From Escherichia phage wV7, in the sequence record NC_019505.1: DNA of 64,000 nt; one strand, given 5' to 3'. This document shows, piece by piece, positions 5,195 to 44,680 of this stretch (the first letter of the stretch is position 1; every line of letters starts with the position of its first letter). A program made the translations under genes and the position numbers. The notes under the pieces are model-generated. The model ran no database searches and was not told where the DNA came from. It saw nothing but the letters and a program-made list of their open reading frames with translations.

Positions 5195-5270
5195 TGGTCG
5201 AGGCAGTAGGGATCGAACCTACGACCTAGGACTTAGAAGGTCCTTGCTCTTCCTTCTGAGCTATGCCCCG
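5195..5270 (-). tRNA. tRNA-Arg (anticodon UCU)
   Basis: Hand-folded cloverleaf: acceptor CGGGGCA/TGCCTCG, anticodon loop CUUCUAA, T-loop TTCGATC, CCA encoded. Confidence 0.85.
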
Positions 5271-5274
5271 TAAT

Positions 5275-5350
5275 TGGGGTGACCGATGGGAGTCGAACCC
5301 ATGACTACGAGAATCACAATCTCGAGTTCTACCAACTGAACTACGGTCAC
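5275..5350 (-). tRNA. tRNA-His (anticodon GUG)
   Basis: Cloverleaf: acceptor GTGACCG/CGGTCAC, discriminator C, anticodon loop TTGTGAT, T-loop TTCGACT, CCA encoded; no G-1 encoded. Confidence 0.75.
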
Positions 5351-5464
5351 ATTAATACCTACTCCAACAATCAAGATGTCTTCACACGAAATTAAGAGAA
5401 GAGTGATCAGTTCAACCCCTATAATCGCGTCAAGTAGATATTAATGTGACAGTTGTCACAAATT

Positions 5465-5539
5465 TGGCGGACGTGATAGGATTCGAACCTATAACCAATC
5501 GCTTAACAGGCGATCGCTCTGCCATTGAGCTACACATCC
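5465..5539 (-). tRNA. tRNA-Asn (anticodon GUU)
   Basis: Cloverleaf: acceptor GGATGTG/CACGTCC, D-stem GCTC/GAGC, anticodon stem ATCGC/GCGAT with loop CTGTTAA, T-loop TTCGAAT, CCA encoded. Confidence 0.8.
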
Positions 5540-5543
5540 AAAT

Positions 5544-5630
5544 TGGTGGGGAGTGGTGGAGTCGAACCACCCGAGTCGCAATGACAATGAATTTACAGTC
5601 CACACCGCTACCTCTACGGGATAACTCCCC
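5544..5630 (-). tRNA. tRNA-Tyr (anticodon GUA), class II long variable arm
   Basis: 87 nt; acceptor GGGGAGT/ACTCCCC; anticodon loop CUGUAAA as in bacterial tRNA-Tyr; variable-arm hairpin; D-arm could not be resolved cleanly by hand. Confidence 0.6.
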
Positions 5631-5642
5631 TAATTCATAATT

Positions 5643-5717
5643 TGGTGGCCCTGGGTGGAATTGAACCACCATCTGGCGATTATGAGTCGCTTGCTTGAAC
5701 CTTCCAGCTACAGGGCC
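5643..5717 (-). tRNA. tRNA with CAU anticodon (Met, or Ile if lysidine-modified)
   Basis: Cloverleaf: acceptor GGCCCTG/CAGGGCC, anticodon loop CTCATAA, T-loop TTCAATT, CCA encoded; occupies the position of the T4 tRNA-Ile gene. Confidence 0.75.
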
Positions 5718-5718
5718 T

Positions 5719-5794
5719 TGGTGCTGATTGACGGAATCGAACCGCCGACCTTCTCATTACAAGTGAGTTGCTCTACCTACTGAGCTAAATCAGC
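5719..5794 (-). tRNA. tRNA-Thr (anticodon UGU)
   Basis: Cloverleaf: acceptor GCTGATT/AATCAGC, anticodon loop CTTGTAA, T-loop TTCGATT, CCA encoded. Confidence 0.8.
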
Positions 5795-5799
5795 AAAAC

Positions 5800-5889
5800 T
5801 GGCGGAGGTGATAGGATTCGAACCTATGAATCGCCGGAGCGACTGCCGGTTTTCAAGACCGGTGCATTCAACCACTCTGCCACACCTCC
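5800..5889 (-). tRNA. tRNA-Ser (anticodon UGA), class II
   Basis: 90 nt; acceptor GGAGGTG/CACCTCC, anticodon stem CCGGT/ACCGG with loop CTTGAAA, long variable arm, T-loop TTCGAAT. Confidence 0.8.
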
Positions 5890-5891
5890 AG

Positions 5892-5965
5892 TCTCCATAC
5901 AAGGATTTGAACCTTGGACCTCCTGATCCCAAATCAGGCGCTCTACCAAACTGAGCTACACGGAG
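5892..5965 (-). tRNA. tRNA-Pro (anticodon UGG), 3' CCA not encoded
   Basis: Acceptor CTCCGTG/TATGGAG, anticodon stem CCTGA/TCAGG with loop TTTGGGA, T-loop TTCAAAT; 3' end abuts tRNA-Ser 5' end with CU instead of CCA. Confidence 0.8.
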
Positions 5966-5975
5966 TAAATTAAAT

Positions 5976-6049
<74 letters not shown>

Positions 6050-6054
6050 AAATT

Positions 6055-6141
6055 TGGTGCGAGAAGTGGGACTCGAACCCACAAGGAAATCATTCCGCAG
6101 CATTTTAAGTGCTGTGCCTTTACCAATTTGACCATTCTCGC
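6055..6141 (-). tRNA. tRNA-Leu (anticodon UAA), class II
   Basis: 87 nt; acceptor GCGAGAA/TTCTCGC, anticodon stem CAGCA/TGCTG with loop CTTAAAA, long variable arm, T-loop TTCGAGT. Confidence 0.8.
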
Positions 6142-6142
6142 G

Positions 6143-6215
6143 CTGGGAATAAAGGACTCGAACCTTTGCATCTAGCAGTCAAAGTGCTATGCCTTACCAA
6201 CTTGGCTAATTCCCA
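6143..6215 (-). tRNA. tRNA-Gln (anticodon UUG), 3' CCA not encoded
   Basis: Acceptor TGGGAAT/ATTCCCA, anticodon stem TAGCA/TGCTA with loop CTTTGAC, T-loop TTCGAGT; one nucleotide separates it from tRNA-Leu (dimeric precursor arrangement). Confidence 0.8.
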
Positions 6216-11599: not shown

Positions 11600-13310
11600 T
11601 AACCTCAATTGGTTTGTTGGTGTTGTTGAAGATAGAATGGACCCATTGAAATTAGGTCGTGTTCGTGTTCGTGTTGTTGGTCTGCATCCACCTCAAAGAG
11701 CACAAGGTGATGTAATGGGTATTCCAACTGAAAAATTACCATGGATGTCAGTTATTCAACCTATAACTTCTGCAGCAATGTCTGGAATTGGAGGCTCCGT
11801 TACTGGACCGGTAGAAGGAACTAGAGTTTATGGTCATTTTTTAGACAAATGGAAAACCAACGGAATTGTTCTTGGCACATATGGTGGAATAGTTCGCGAA
11901 AAACCTAATAGACTTGAAGGATTTTCTGACCCAACTGGGCAATATCCTAGACGTTTAGGAAATGATACTAACGTACTAAACCAAGGCGGAGAAGTAGGAT
12001 ATGATTCGTCTTCTAACGTTATTCAAGATAGTAACTTAGACACTGCAATAAATCCTGATGATAGACCACTATCAGAGATTCCAACCGATGATAATCCAAA
12101 TATGTCAATGGCTGAAATGCTTCGCCGTGATGAAGGATTAAGACTAAAAGTTTATTGGGATACCGAAGGATATCCGACAATTGGTATTGGTCATCTTATC
12201 ATGAAGCAGCCAGTTCGTGATATGGCTCAAATTAATAAAGTTTTATCAAAACAAGTTGGTCGTGAAATTACTGGAAACCCAGGTTCTATTACAATGGAAG
12301 AGGCGACAGCTTTATTTGAGCGTGATTTGGCTGATATGCAACGTGACATTAAATCACATTCTAAAGTAGGACCAGTCTGGCAAGCTGTCAACCGTTCTCG
12401 TCAAATGGCGTTAGAAAATATGGCATTTCAGATGGGTGTTGGCGGTGTAGCTAAATTTAACACAATGTTAACTGCTATGTTAGCAGGAGATTGGGAAAAA
12501 GCATATAAAGCTGGTCGTGATTCGTTGTGGTATCAACAAACAAAAGGCCGTGCATCCCGTGTTACCATGATTATTCTTACCGGAAATTTGGAATCATATG
12601 GTATTGAAGTTAAAACACCAGCTAGGTCTTTGTCGGCAATGGCTGCTACTGTGGCGAAGTCTTCTGATCCAGCTGACCCTCCTATTCCAAATGACTCAAG
12701 AATTTTATTCAAAGAACCAGTTTCTTCATATAAAGGCGAATATCCGTATGTTCACACAATGGAAACTGAAAGCGGTCATATTCAGGAATTTGATGATACC
12801 CCTGGGCAAGAACGATATAGATTAGTTCATCCAACTGGAACTTATGAAGAAGTATCACCGTCAGGAAGAAGAACAAGAAAAACTGTCGATAATTTGTATG
12901 ATATAACCAACGCTGATGGTAATTTTTTGGTAGCCGGCGATAAAAAGACTAACGTCGGTGGATCAGAAATTTATTACAACATGGATAATCGTCTTCACCA
13001 AATAGATGGAAGCAATACAATATTTGTACGTGGCGATGAAACTAAGACGGTTGAAGGTAATGGAACTATCCTAGTTAAAGGTAATGTTACTATTGTAGTT
13101 GAAGGTAATGCTGACATTACAGTTAAAGGAGATGCTACCACTTTAGTTGAAGGAAATCAGACTAATACAGTAAATGGAAATCTTTCTTGGAAAGTTGCTG
13201 GGACAGTTGATTGGGACGTTGGTGGTGATTGGACAGAAAAAATGGCATCTATGAGTTCTATTTCATCTGGTCAATACACAATTGATGGATCGAGGATTGA
13301 CATTGGCTAA
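11583..13310 (+). CDS. 5: gp5 baseplate hub / cell-puncturing spike with tail lysozyme domain
   Basis: 575 aa; N-terminal OB-fold region, central T4-lysozyme-like domain, C-terminal VxGxxxxx beta-helix repeats (VEGNGTILVKGNVTIVVEGNADITVKGD). Confidence 0.95.
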   Translation: MEMISNNLNWFVGVVEDRMDPLKLGRVRVRVVGLHPPQRAQGDVMGIPTEKLPWMSVIQPITSAAMSGIGGSVTGPVEGTRVYGHFLDKWKTNGIVLGTYGGIVREKPNRLEGFSDPTGQYPRRLGNDTNVLNQGGEVGYDSSSNVIQDSNLDTAINPDDRPLSEIPTDDNPNMSMAEMLRRDEGLRLKVYWDTEGYPTIGIGHLIMKQPVRDMAQINKVLSKQVGREITGNPGSITMEEATALFERDLADMQRDIKSHSKVGPVWQAVNRSRQMALENMAFQMGVGGVAKFNTMLTAMLAGDWEKAYKAGRDSLWYQQTKGRASRVTMIILTGNLESYGIEVKTPARSLSAMAATVAKSSDPADPPIPNDSRILFKEPVSSYKGEYPYVHTMETESGHIQEFDDTPGQERYRLVHPTGTYEEVSPSGRRTRKTVDNLYDITNADGNFLVAGDKKTNVGGSEIYYNMDNRLHQIDGSNTIFVRGDETKTVEGNGTILVKGNVTIVVEGNADITVKGDATTLVEGNQTNTVNGNLSWKVAGTVDWDVGGDWTEKMASMSSISSGQYTIDGSRIDIG

Positions 13311-41945: not shown

Positions 41946-42224
41946 TCAAAATGTAATTTCTAACCAATCACCATCACGCTGATCACTATTGACTTTAAAA
42001 TTAAATCCTTCTTTTCTCAGCCAATCACCAATTTCTTCAGTAATCAATTTATCACGAGCAGTACAATAATAACTAAAATATGTTTTACCTTGTTCAGCTG
42101 CTTTATTAGCAAGTTCTGAAAAATCTTTAATAAAACACTCTAGCTTAAACTGTTTACTTTTTAATGCTTTTTCACGTAATTGATTAGCAAAAGATTCATT
42201 TTCATAAAGATCATACTGTTCCAT
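41946..42224 (-). CDS. hypothetical protein (24.2-like)
   Basis: 92 aa ATG-start ORF downstream of 24.3-like gene. Confidence 0.5.
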   Translation of the reverse strand: MEQYDLYENESFANQLREKALKSKQFKLECFIKDFSELANKAAEQGKTYFSYYCTARDKLITEEIGDWLRKEGFNFKVNSDQRDGDWLEITF

Positions 42225-42426
42225 TTTTCACCTTTTTATTAATGTGTCTTTTTCTATAGACAACTTTTTCTCGAGTCTCAAATTTATTCTTTGCAGTCAT
42301 AGCTCGAGCCCATAATACAGCCACTTCTTTCGCCTGTAAGTTTAATTCACGAGCAATTTCAATGAATGACTTTCCAGACTCATGAAGTGTAAACACCACA
42401 ACTTCAGTTCTCATAATCAATCTCAT
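42211..42426 (-). CDS. hypothetical small protein with helix-turn-helix-like segment (24.3-like)
   Basis: 71 aa; segment SGKSFIEIARELNLQAKEVAVLW resembles an HTH; basic C-terminus. Confidence 0.45.
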   Translation of the reverse strand: MRLIMRTEVVVFTLHESGKSFIEIARELNLQAKEVAVLWARAMTAKNKFETREKVVYRKRHINKKVKNGTV

Positions 42427-42477
42427 GTTATCGAGTTGGTGCCATTATATACATCATTTTCTGATTGTGTTTTGTGT

Positions 42478-42512
42478 GCTTTCAAAATGAAGAAAGGGGC
42501 CGAAGCCCCTTT
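42478..42512 (-). terminator. terminator-like hairpin after hoc (minus strand)
   Basis: AAAGGGGC-UUCG-GCCCCUUU followed by UUUCUUCAUUUUG on minus-strand RNA. Confidence 0.5.
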
Positions 42513-42515
42513 CGA

Positions 42516-43940
42516 TTATGGATAAGTATAGATGATACCAGTTTCTAAAGCAGTTTTATGGATGATGTATCCATTACGTGATTCTTGAACATCAACTTCT
42601 GAATAATCTTTCATCATCTTCTGAAGCGTATAACGATGCAAGTAGTACTTACTATCTGGATCTTCAGTTTTCCAATCTTTACCTTCTTCAGTCATTTTTT
42701 GGATTTCATCCATAACCCACCAACCGCACCAGATATAAGCTGAAGTACGATGTGGAAGAGGATGAACATAAGGCAATTCACCTTCTGGTTCCGGAGCAAC
42801 TTTATCAGTTACCTGAACTTGACCTGTTGTTTTAACTGTTTTACTATCATAGTCGGTTGCTGTAACGACAGCAGTAACTTCAATAGTTTGACTTCCAATA
42901 GATGAGGTGTCAACGGTGTATACGTTAGTTGACCCTTCTACAGGAGAAGAATCTTTCTTCCATGAATAAGTAATTTGTGCTGCTTCAGGTGCTCCAGTAA
43001 CATTAGCCGTAAATGTAGCCGAAGCATCTTGCTGAACGTTAATAGAAGGAGGAGTCAATGTAACCTGTGGATTCATTGTCTTCTTATTAACTGTCAATGA
43101 TACTTCATTAGAAGTAACTTCCTTTTCATTGTAATTTTCTGCAGTTACTTGCGCTACACATTTAATTCTTTTTACTCCACTTGTAGTTGGAGTATAGTTA
43201 AATGTAGAGTTAGTTTCTCCACCAATTTGAGAATCATCTACATACCACTTATATGTAGCAGACGCTCCATCAGGTTGAGAAGCTAAGGCAGCAGTAAATT
43301 GAACTGGAGTTCCAATTACTCCAGCTGAAGGACTATTAGGAGTTACAACTAAAGTAGTCGCTTGGGTTTTCTTGTTAACAGTCAGCGACACTTCGTCAGA
43401 AGTAACGGTCTTTGTATCATAATCTGTCGCAGTTACTTGAGCTACACACTTAATTTTTTTAACTCCGCTTGTGGCAGGAGTATAGTTAAATGTAGCGTCA
43501 GTTGCTTCTCCCACAGGAGAACCGTCGACGTGCCATTGATACGTAGCAGATGCACCTGGCGGCTGTGAATCTAAGGCAGCGGTAAATTGAACAGCTGTTC
43601 CGATTACTCCTTCCGAAGGACTATCAGGAGTTACTGTTATTGTAGTAGTCTGTGTCTTATTTTGAACTGTGATAGTTGTCGTAGCTTCTGCTGTTTCAGG
43701 TTCAGATTCAGATTCTGGAACTGTATTTGTTGCAACGACTTTAATAGTCTTTTGACCGGCAGGTCCTTTTAGTACATAACTAAAAGTTGCTTCAGCTCCA
43801 TCCTGTGGAACATTATCTACACTCCAAGCATAGGTAATAGTTCCACCTTCAGTTTGACCACTGGGTGCAGCAGTAAACTGCTTGGTTTCATCAATAACTC
43901 CTGTTGGGGTTTTAGGAGTTATATCAACTGTAAAAGTCAT
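42516..43940 (-). CDS. hoc: Hoc outer capsid decoration protein with an extra Ig-like domain
   Basis: 474 aa of tandem Ig-like beta-rich domains plus C-terminal capsid-binding region; two adjacent domains are near-identical. Confidence 0.85.
   Translation of the reverse strand: MTFTVDITPKTPTGVIDETKQFTAAPSGQTEGGTITYAWSVDNVPQDGAEATFSYVLKGPAGQKTIKVVATNTVPESESEPETAEATTTITVQNKTQTTTITVTPDSPSEGVIGTAVQFTAALDSQPPGASATYQWHVDGSPVGEATDATFNYTPATSGVKKIKCVAQVTATDYDTKTVTSDEVSLTVNKKTQATTLVVTPNSPSAGVIGTPVQFTAALASQPDGASATYKWYVDDSQIGGETNSTFNYTPTTSGVKRIKCVAQVTAENYNEKEVTSNEVSLTVNKKTMNPQVTLTPPSINVQQDASATFTANVTGAPEAAQITYSWKKDSSPVEGSTNVYTVDTSSIGSQTIEVTAVVTATDYDSKTVKTTGQVQVTDKVAPEPEGELPYVHPLPHRTSAYIWCGWWVMDEIQKMTEEGKDWKTEDPDSKYYLHRYTLQKMMKDYSEVDVQESRNGYIIHKTALETGIIYTYP
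43077..43649 (-). repeat. tandem direct duplication (2 x ~285 bp) encoding two Ig-like domains of Hoc
   Basis: Protein residues 98-193 and 194-288 are about 80% identical (VTPDSPSEGVIGTAVQFTAAL... versus VTPNSPSAGVIGTPVQFTAAL...). Confidence 0.8.
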
Positions 43941-43949
43941 AAGTTATCC

Positions 43950-44630
43950 TTATTTTAATGTTACGAAAGAAGAATTGCGTGTTTCACGAATTAGAACTGA
44001 TCCGTCACGATTAATGTAGTAAATTAAGCTAAACAAAGTTTGATGCGCAGACGCATGTTCAAAACTGGTTGGGCGAGATTTCCAATCTGGAGTTTCAGCA
44101 ATCCATTGGTAAATCCACCAAGGAACAGTGCAGAATCCTGGATTTTTTCCAATCAGCTGAAGATTCGGGCTAAAGTTTTCCGGAAGAGTAAATACAGACG
44201 GCTTTTCAGATTCAATAATCTTATCTACAGCTTGTTCAAACTTTTCTTCAACAAAAGGAGTGTCTTCAATCAAAACATCAGTATTTTCAGGAATTTTATC
44301 CGTTTCTACCACTTCAATTTTAATATCAGATTTAACTGGAGAATCAATCAGAAGTGCTGCTTCTGGATTAACTTCTTCATCGTCATATTTTAATCCCTCT
44401 GCAGCATCAGCAGCATCAATTAAGTCTTTAATAGATAACCCATCAGTCTCTGGCATAGGTTCACTAGCGAGCTTCTGGAGGGCTTCTTCAATATCAACAA
44501 CGATATTATCAAAAGATTTATTCTTTTTGACCTTTATACCAAATTGCTCAGCATATTCAGCTAATTTAGCTTTAGCTTCTTTATTATCATCAAGAGCCTT
44601 TAACTCTGCAATATAATCTTTATCTATCAT
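43950..44630 (-). CDS. inh: Inh-like protein (inhibitor of prohead protease)
   Basis: 226 aa acidic protein located between hoc and uvsW as in T4; assignment by position and size. Confidence 0.6.
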   Translation of the reverse strand: MIDKDYIAELKALDDNKEAKAKLAEYAEQFGIKVKKNKSFDNIVVDIEEALQKLASEPMPETDGLSIKDLIDAADAAEGLKYDDEEVNPEAALLIDSPVKSDIKIEVVETDKIPENTDVLIEDTPFVEEKFEQAVDKIIESEKPSVFTLPENFSPNLQLIGKNPGFCTVPWWIYQWIAETPDWKSRPTSFEHASAHQTLFSLIYYINRDGSVLIRETRNSSFVTLK

Positions 44631-44643
44631 AATATTTCCTCAG

Positions 44644-44651
44644 TATAAATA
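44644..44651 (+). promoter_or_regulatory. late promoter TATAAATA
   Basis: Exact match 30 nt upstream of uvsW ATG. Confidence 0.45.
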
Positions 44652-44680
44652 TAGATATATTTATTACATGGTATTTAGAC

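Follow-up and report, generated by a model that had tools for sequence, protein, structure and literature searches.

The hoc gene examined here lies in a 64,000-nt stretch of DNA from Escherichia phage wV7 (NC_019505.1; the whole stretch is referred to as the window) and encodes a highly immunogenic outer capsid protein, Hoc, of 474 residues, in place of the 376 residues of the T4 protein. An original prediction ascribed the additional length to two tandem copies of a single Ig-like domain, about 80% identical to each other, and took their high identity as the mark of a recent duplication that would lengthen the capsid surface fibre. The locus therefore raises the question of what the additional residues are, how old the tandem is, and what an added domain would do. 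The gene is, very probably, the five-domain hoc of an AR1-type Tequatrovirus, with an old tandem of two units, A and B, that is polymorphic among relatives, has repeatedly collapsed, and would lengthen the fibre by its extra unit.

Gene identity and domain layout

The hoc coding sequence is present as a single minus-strand ORF of 474 codons and a stop in the ORF list of the window. The features of the locus, in order of position, are as follows.

42492..42513, minus strand: intrinsic-terminator-like hairpin directly past the hoc stop codon (9-bp stem with 6 G-C pairs, GAAAGGGGCTTCGGCCCCTTTC, then TTCATTTTGA)
42516..43940, minus strand: hoc coding sequence, five-domain highly immunogenic outer capsid protein (ORF; PHROG 1149; 5vf3_Z; ECTP7_01335 of KP869105.1)
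42519..42800, minus strand: C-terminal capsid-binding domain, residues 381-474 (alignment to T4 283-376; conserved contact residues)
42801..43082, minus strand: domain 3 (D3), residues 287-380, Ig-like (Pfam Ig_3 and I-set at 291-358; pLDDT ~90; alignment to T4 189-286)
43083..43370, minus strand: unit B, residues 191-286, second D2-type Ig-like domain (alignment to T4 94-188; Pfam PKD at 197-269)
43371..43658, minus strand: unit A, residues 95-190, first D2-type Ig-like domain, extra relative to T4 (unit HMM, 191 bits; Pfam Ig_2 at 109-180)
43659..43940, minus strand: domain 1 (D1), residues 1-94, distal Ig-like domain and a D1-D2 linker 2 aa longer than that of T4 (alignment to T4 1-107; beta-domain pLDDT ~90)
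43950..44630, minus strand: inh (226 aa), co-oriented with and upstream of hoc (ORF; sequence; T4 gene order)

The 474-residue protein matches PHROG 1149, "Hoc-like head decoration" (E=6e-145), and T4 Hoc (PDB 5vf3_Z; E=3.5e-216). Escherichia coli O157 typing phage 7 (KP869105.1), a Tequatrovirus, is 100% identical to the window across hoc, and its counterpart of the gene, ECTP7_01335, is labelled in that record only as "PKD domain protein". The hoc gene of phage AR1 is 99.6% identical at the DNA level. As described for Hoc, the protein is acidic, with a computed pI of 4.66.

Comparison of the window ORFs with the T4 and KP869105.1 annotations shows the T4 gene order, with inh upstream of hoc, 24.3, 24.2, and rnlB downstream, and uvsW on the opposite strand; the genome position of Hoc is conserved, including the adjoining genes 24 and 23. 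The TAA stop codon of inh overlaps an AGGA ribosome-binding site located 6 nt ahead of the hoc ATG. At the other end of the gene, a terminator is annotated in phage OE5505 at the place equivalent to the hairpin at 42492..42513. No exact TATAAATA late-promoter box was found on the minus strand upstream of inh-hoc, and a one-mismatch AATAAATA upstream of inh is the sole late-promoter-box-like sequence visible there. Two plus-strand ORFs within hoc (43362-43568 and 43587-43772) are antisense to the conserved coding region and were treated as chance ORFs. The AR1 record (AP011113.1, locus 1716-1859, approximately 42382-42525 of the window) carries a 47-residue antisense ORF, ar1_183, annotated "No matched to nr", which overlaps the hoc stop codon and terminator and is most likely an annotation artefact.

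Several further observations concern the neighbourhood and the rest of the window. At the position of gene 24.3, the minus-strand ORF at 42211-42426 encodes 71 residues from the first ATG, in comparison with annotated lengths of 67 residues (204 nt) in KP869105.1 and 56 residues (171 nt) in T4, so the choice of start codon differs among annotations; the product carries Pfam DUF2774 in related contigs. Between inh and uvsW, where T4 has the homing-endonuclease gene segE, the window has only a 50-nt spacer (44631-44680), and segE is absent. The window also contains a cluster of 11 tRNA genes on the minus strand at 5195-6215 (Arg, His, Asn, Tyr, Met(CAT), Thr, Ser, Pro, Gly, Leu, and Gln). T4 has eight tRNAs; we take the His, Asn, and Tyr tRNAs to be extra relative to T4, and the tRNA with the CAT anticodon may correspond to T4 tRNA-Ile.

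A repeat search identified two adjacent direct copies of 288 nt in hoc, at 43078-43365 and 43366-43653, that are 75% identical and align without gaps. In domain register, 217 of 288 nucleotides are identical between unit A and unit B (shuffled sequences peak at 100; n=2000), as are 71 of 96 residues (74%) between residues 95-190 and 191-286. The original prediction placed the repeat at 43077-43649, exactly residues 98-288, a register in which the copies share 70 of 96 residues; the tandem itself was thus correctly recognized and the figure of about 80% was somewhat high. Comparison of the protein with itself recovers the repeat clearly, with 68 of 90 identities at an offset of 96 and at most 27 of 90 at every other offset. 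The units are adjacent, in frame, and one domain long, and their likeness to each other is far above their likeness to D1 or D3 (~27/90 or less). The 288-nt repeat was missed by Tandem Repeats Finder, whose score threshold is too high for two copies at 75% identity. A second tandem repeat in the window, at 13050-13181, has a period of 24/48 nt, 2.5-3.6 copies, and 72-83% matches; its 8-residue periodicity would, we assume, fit the beta-helix needle repeat (VxGxxxxx) of the gp5 cell-puncturing protein.

In the alignment with T4 Hoc, residues 1-109 of the window protein correspond to T4 residues 1-107, and residues 192-474 to T4 residues 94-376. The window protein is therefore T4 Hoc with one 96-residue unit added and two further residues in the D1-D2 linker, which accounts for the difference between 474 and 376 residues. 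The resulting order is D1, D2A, D2B, D3, and the capsid-binding C-terminal domain, and both tandem units are of the T4 Hoc domain-2 type. T4 D2 is 87% identical at the nucleotide level to unit B versus 78.5% to unit A, which makes unit B the nearer of the two to T4 Hoc domain 2. T4 Hoc (376 residues; PDB 5vf3 chain Z, 8t1x, and 8t9r) has four domains, to which the window protein adds unit A and the longer linker, making five; the two proteins share the position of their genes between inh and 24.3 and their acidic character.

The C-terminal domain is homologous to T4 Hoc residues ~281-376 and retains the aromatic and basic contact residues. In a 121-sequence alignment, Y391, H393, H397, R398, W404, W407, and W408 are invariant or nearly so, and they match T4 residues Y293, H295, H299, R300, W306, W309, and W310 with a shift of +98. 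The T4 residues are named as capsid contacts (PMC10385173).

An AlphaFold2 model, calculated from the same 121-sequence alignment, which is shallow and composed of very similar sequences, comprises four consecutive all-beta domains with pLDDT ~90 over residues 1-380. In the PDB, Foldseek ranks proteins with four Ig domains in a row highest (ICAM-5 D1-D4 and the first four Ig domains of Dscam1, counted from its N terminus), and NCAM Ig1-3 is also matched. Pfam signals for PKD, Ig_2, Ig_3, and I-set are spread over units A, B, and D3. Pfam, AlphaFold2, and Foldseek thus all describe an N-terminal string of Ig-like domains, and the extra 96 residues are predicted to form one more Ig-like domain, in agreement with the expectation that each copy has the size of one such domain. 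The C-terminal domain is modelled poorly (pLDDT <50 at residues 383-412 and 445-474), owing to the limited depth and low diversity of that alignment. The pTM of 0.55 leaves the inter-domain geometry uncertain and, together with the poor prediction of the C-terminal domain, makes the fibre length an estimate. Taken together, the protein has every Hoc-defining feature that is open to sequence testing.

Distribution and age of the A-B tandem

The 1425-nt hoc gene is found in one piece in KP869105.1 (100%), in AR1 (99.6%), and, at 98.6%, in Sf21, PYps32T, REP2, and EPIMAM01, among others. A false doubling of the repeat during assembly, which had been named as the finding that would overturn the prediction, is scarcely credible: at least 12 further phages, each sequenced independently, carry the full gene without interruption at 96-99.6% identity, hundreds of two-unit proteins are known from other sources, and copies that are 75% identical are not of the kind that assemblers duplicate or merge.

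A protein search combined with the unit HMM shows that Hoc length classes of 376/378, 472/474, and 568/570 residues have exactly one, two, and three D2-type units, and the Hoc of slur03 (664 residues) has four. The census across the phage collection consists of a total count, 888 unit copies in 615 records, and an evenly spaced sample of 60 records, of which 38 have one unit, 20 have two, one has three, and one has four. Two or more units, and hence a lengthened Hoc, are present in about a third of the records of related phages. Related genomes differ by whole units (1-4) with recombinant junctions, and the five-domain Hoc of the window is one state of an ordinary 1-to-4-copy polymorphism.

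Similar to the window protein, the Hoc proteins of AR1, Sf21, PP01, REP2, and PYps32T have five domains with unit A followed by unit B; AR1 and the other two-unit Tequatrovirus proteins differ from it by point changes only and belong to the same allele class. The three-unit Hoc of UGKSEcP2 (570 residues) and the four-unit Hoc of slur03 share the flanking domains and repeat the 96-residue D2-type unit in register, but they have more units, which are mosaics of A and B segment types rather than simple copies. Other T4-like groups have Hoc forms of 279-282, 367-377, and 471-472 residues. The 471-residue Hoc of Klebsiella phage Marfa (MN044033.1, locus 1501-2913) is likewise a four-Ig Hoc that arose through tandem duplication of one Ig-like domain, except that D3 is duplicated in place of D2. 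The Marfa copies are identical at 65 of 80 residues, and the Hoc proteins of its closest relatives, HMGUkp2, vB_Kpn_F48, and PWKp16, have ~377 residues. Because D3 rather than D2 is duplicated and the copies are more alike, the Marfa duplication is an independent and younger event in another T4-like group. A far larger Hoc-like fibre, of 1174 residues with 10 Ig-like domains, is described for Serratia phage Muldoon, a distant phage compared here by that description alone (PMC10385173).

The age of the tandem can be judged from the divergence of its units. A recent duplication would be expected to leave near-identical copies with low dS that belong to a single lineage. Between unit A and unit B, dS is 0.96, near saturation, with a dN/dS of 0.17 (Nei-Gojobori), and the longest identical run in register is 19 nt. 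Between the window and T4, dS is 0.20 in D1 (dN/dS 0.06), 0.44 in D3, and 0.43 in the C-terminal domain, where dN is 0.014 over residues 385-474; the synonymous divergence between A and B is therefore 2-5 times that between the window and T4 in the rest of hoc. Both units are kept under purifying selection.

At the DNA level, the units of related phages fall into two lineages, with 82-90% identity within type A, 79-94% within type B, and 74-79% between the types. Type A comprises unit 1 of the window, of slur03, and of the related locus L003, and the sole unit of L006. Type B comprises unit 2 of the window, the units of T4, L004, and L005, unit 2 of L003, and units 2-4 of slur03. In a set of 120 cluster representatives, all nine three-unit proteins and 30 of 31 two-unit proteins begin with a unit closer to A, and 29 of the 31 end with a unit closer to B. 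The A-then-B arrangement is common to many Tequatrovirus phages, recurring in independently sequenced members that include AR1, Sf21, and PP01. Units within one protein are 56-85% identical, and no multi-unit representative (~40) has units that exceed 85%.

These values make it very unlikely that domain 2 was duplicated recently and in place in this phage lineage, even though the copies lie side by side in one frame, match a single domain exactly in length, and are clearly homologous, as such an event would leave them. The divergence of the copies, the occurrence of both unit types in the same order across many phages, and the lack of closely similar units within any multi-unit representative all stand against it, and the "recent" of the original prediction is not borne out. 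Units A and B are instead old paralogues, or old alleles that were joined in tandem.

The second of these routes would involve unequal exchange between diverged A-type and B-type single-unit hoc alleles during a mixed infection. Single-unit alleles of both DNA lineages do exist (A-type in L006; B-type in T4, L004, and L005), and among the single-unit proteins (n=81), 44 are closer to A and 27 are closer to B. The visible mosaicism of the units shows frequent exchange between alleles, and dS between A and B exceeds the divergence of the flanks. However, the single-unit alleles with window flanks are all derived A-to-B chimeras, as described below, and never pure A or pure B, and the conserved A-then-B order fits a single origin by either route. 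The data are compatible with both routes. The joining of alleles is regarded as somewhat unlikely, and the reading of an old A-B tandem, maintained and polymorphic across the group, is the one carried forward here.

Collapse of the tandem to a single unit

Nine representatives with a Hoc of 378 residues all have near-window flanks, with an N-terminal flank match of up to 94/94, and the linker that is two residues longer than in T4. Their sole unit has an A-like start and a B-like end in all nine, seven being simple A-to-B chimeras and two being A-B-A-B mosaics. Crossovers were located at the DNA level in six alleles, four from metagenome contigs and two from cultured phages, Shigella phage ESh25 and E. 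coli phage vB_EcoM_OE5505. A model with a single A-to-B crossover accounts for 283-288 of the 288 nt in each allele. The six switch intervals are distinct (unit nt 24-33, 34-44, 57-62, 78-88, 163-182, and 219-231), and every one sits in a tract of 5-19 nt that is identical in A and B.

Because six single-crossover chimeras have different switch points, the window-type A-B tandem has collapsed to one unit at least six separate times, by recombination or slippage in register, each time leaving an A(5')-B(3') chimera. It is unlikely that these alleles are assembly collapses, since the shared tracts are shorter than typical assembler k-mers and two of the alleles come from isolate genomes. In OE5505 (MK373785.1, locus 201-1337), the collapsed single-unit hoc is interrupted by a stop at codon 226, and the record splits it into two ORFs; it is either a natural pseudogene, in keeping with the dispensability of Hoc, or a sequencing error.

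Gain of units presumably proceeds by reciprocal unequal exchange. None of the three-unit alleles seen is the reciprocal product with window-like flanks; they are complex mosaics built from segments that resemble A or B, with blocks at unit positions ~41-55 and 77-84. In the middle units of these alleles, which were checked for B-to-A chimeras, only four residues diagnostic of A or B are available, all at positions 48-55. A literature search found no paper describing the A and B unit lineages or their recurrent collapse, nor one describing the D2 tandem of AR1-type Tequatrovirus Hoc. The lineages and the recurrent collapse are refinements of a known picture.

Function and significance of the extra unit

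Hoc forms a linear fibre in which the Ig-like domains are directed outward from a C-terminal anchor at the centre of a capsid hexamer; in T4 it measures 180 A, and the number of Ig domains varies from 1 to 10 among phages (PMC10385173). Among T4-like phages, Hoc also varies in how many domains it has and in how they are arranged (PMC11150434). By analogy, the C-terminal domain of the window protein would anchor a Hoc monomer at the centre of each gp23 hexamer. A longer fibre can reasonably be expected because the extra 96 residues are predicted to form another Ig-like domain; scaled from the four-domain T4 fibre, each extra unit would add about one Ig domain, or ~4-4.5 nm. The D1 tip would thereby be held further from the capsid, and the fibre may gain a second, diverged D2-type surface for weak, reversible adhesion.

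The role of D2 itself is disputed. In phage PNJ-6, D1 of Hoc binds fucose on MUC2, whereas D2 and D3 do not (PMC11150434); in contrast, domains 2 and 3 are described as attaching to E. coli (PMC10385173). The extra unit might be mainly a module that binds a ligand of its own, for example a glycan on the bacterial surface, with different targets for A and B, and not mainly a spacer. The low dN/dS of both units, the clustering of A/B-diagnostic differences at unit positions 48-55, the second variable block at 77-84, and the reported attachment to E. coli are in line with such a role. On the other hand, neither the variable positions nor the A/B differences are significantly enriched in predicted loops (Fisher p=0.10, Mann-Whitney p=0.17), D2 of PNJ-6 lacks MUC2 binding, and the repeated natural loss of one unit suggests that neither is indispensable. 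A dedicated binding function is thus possible, if doubtful. Purifying selection on both units, together with the loss of either half in nature, fits a reading of the extra unit as a useful but dispensable module. A further proposal, that the D2-unit array acts as a fast-changing "rheostat" of length and adhesion, in which recurrent in-register gain and loss over one to four copies, with mosaic units, tunes reach and binding to different mucosal or bacterial-surface environments and copy number is under habitat-dependent selection rather than neutral drift, is improbable as it stands.

The internally duplicated Hoc is a real but ordinary observation: the exact sequence is already public in GenBank, variability in the number of Hoc domains is already in the literature, and the current understanding of Hoc is unchanged by these results. 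They matter chiefly in practice. Work on mucus adherence, like the phage display and vaccine platforms that employ T4 Hoc, assumes a four-domain fibre of 376 residues, and a longer one is found in approximately one third of the close relatives of T4, among them phages used in therapy and typing, such as AR1 and PP01. The repeated collapse is a warning that the repeat can vanish during propagation or engineering. Natural Hoc alleles with constant flanks, one, two, three, or four D2 units, and defined A/B chimeras form a near-isogenic series that could be used to test whether fibre length or D2 content affects mucus adherence, aggregation, immunogenicity, or display geometry.
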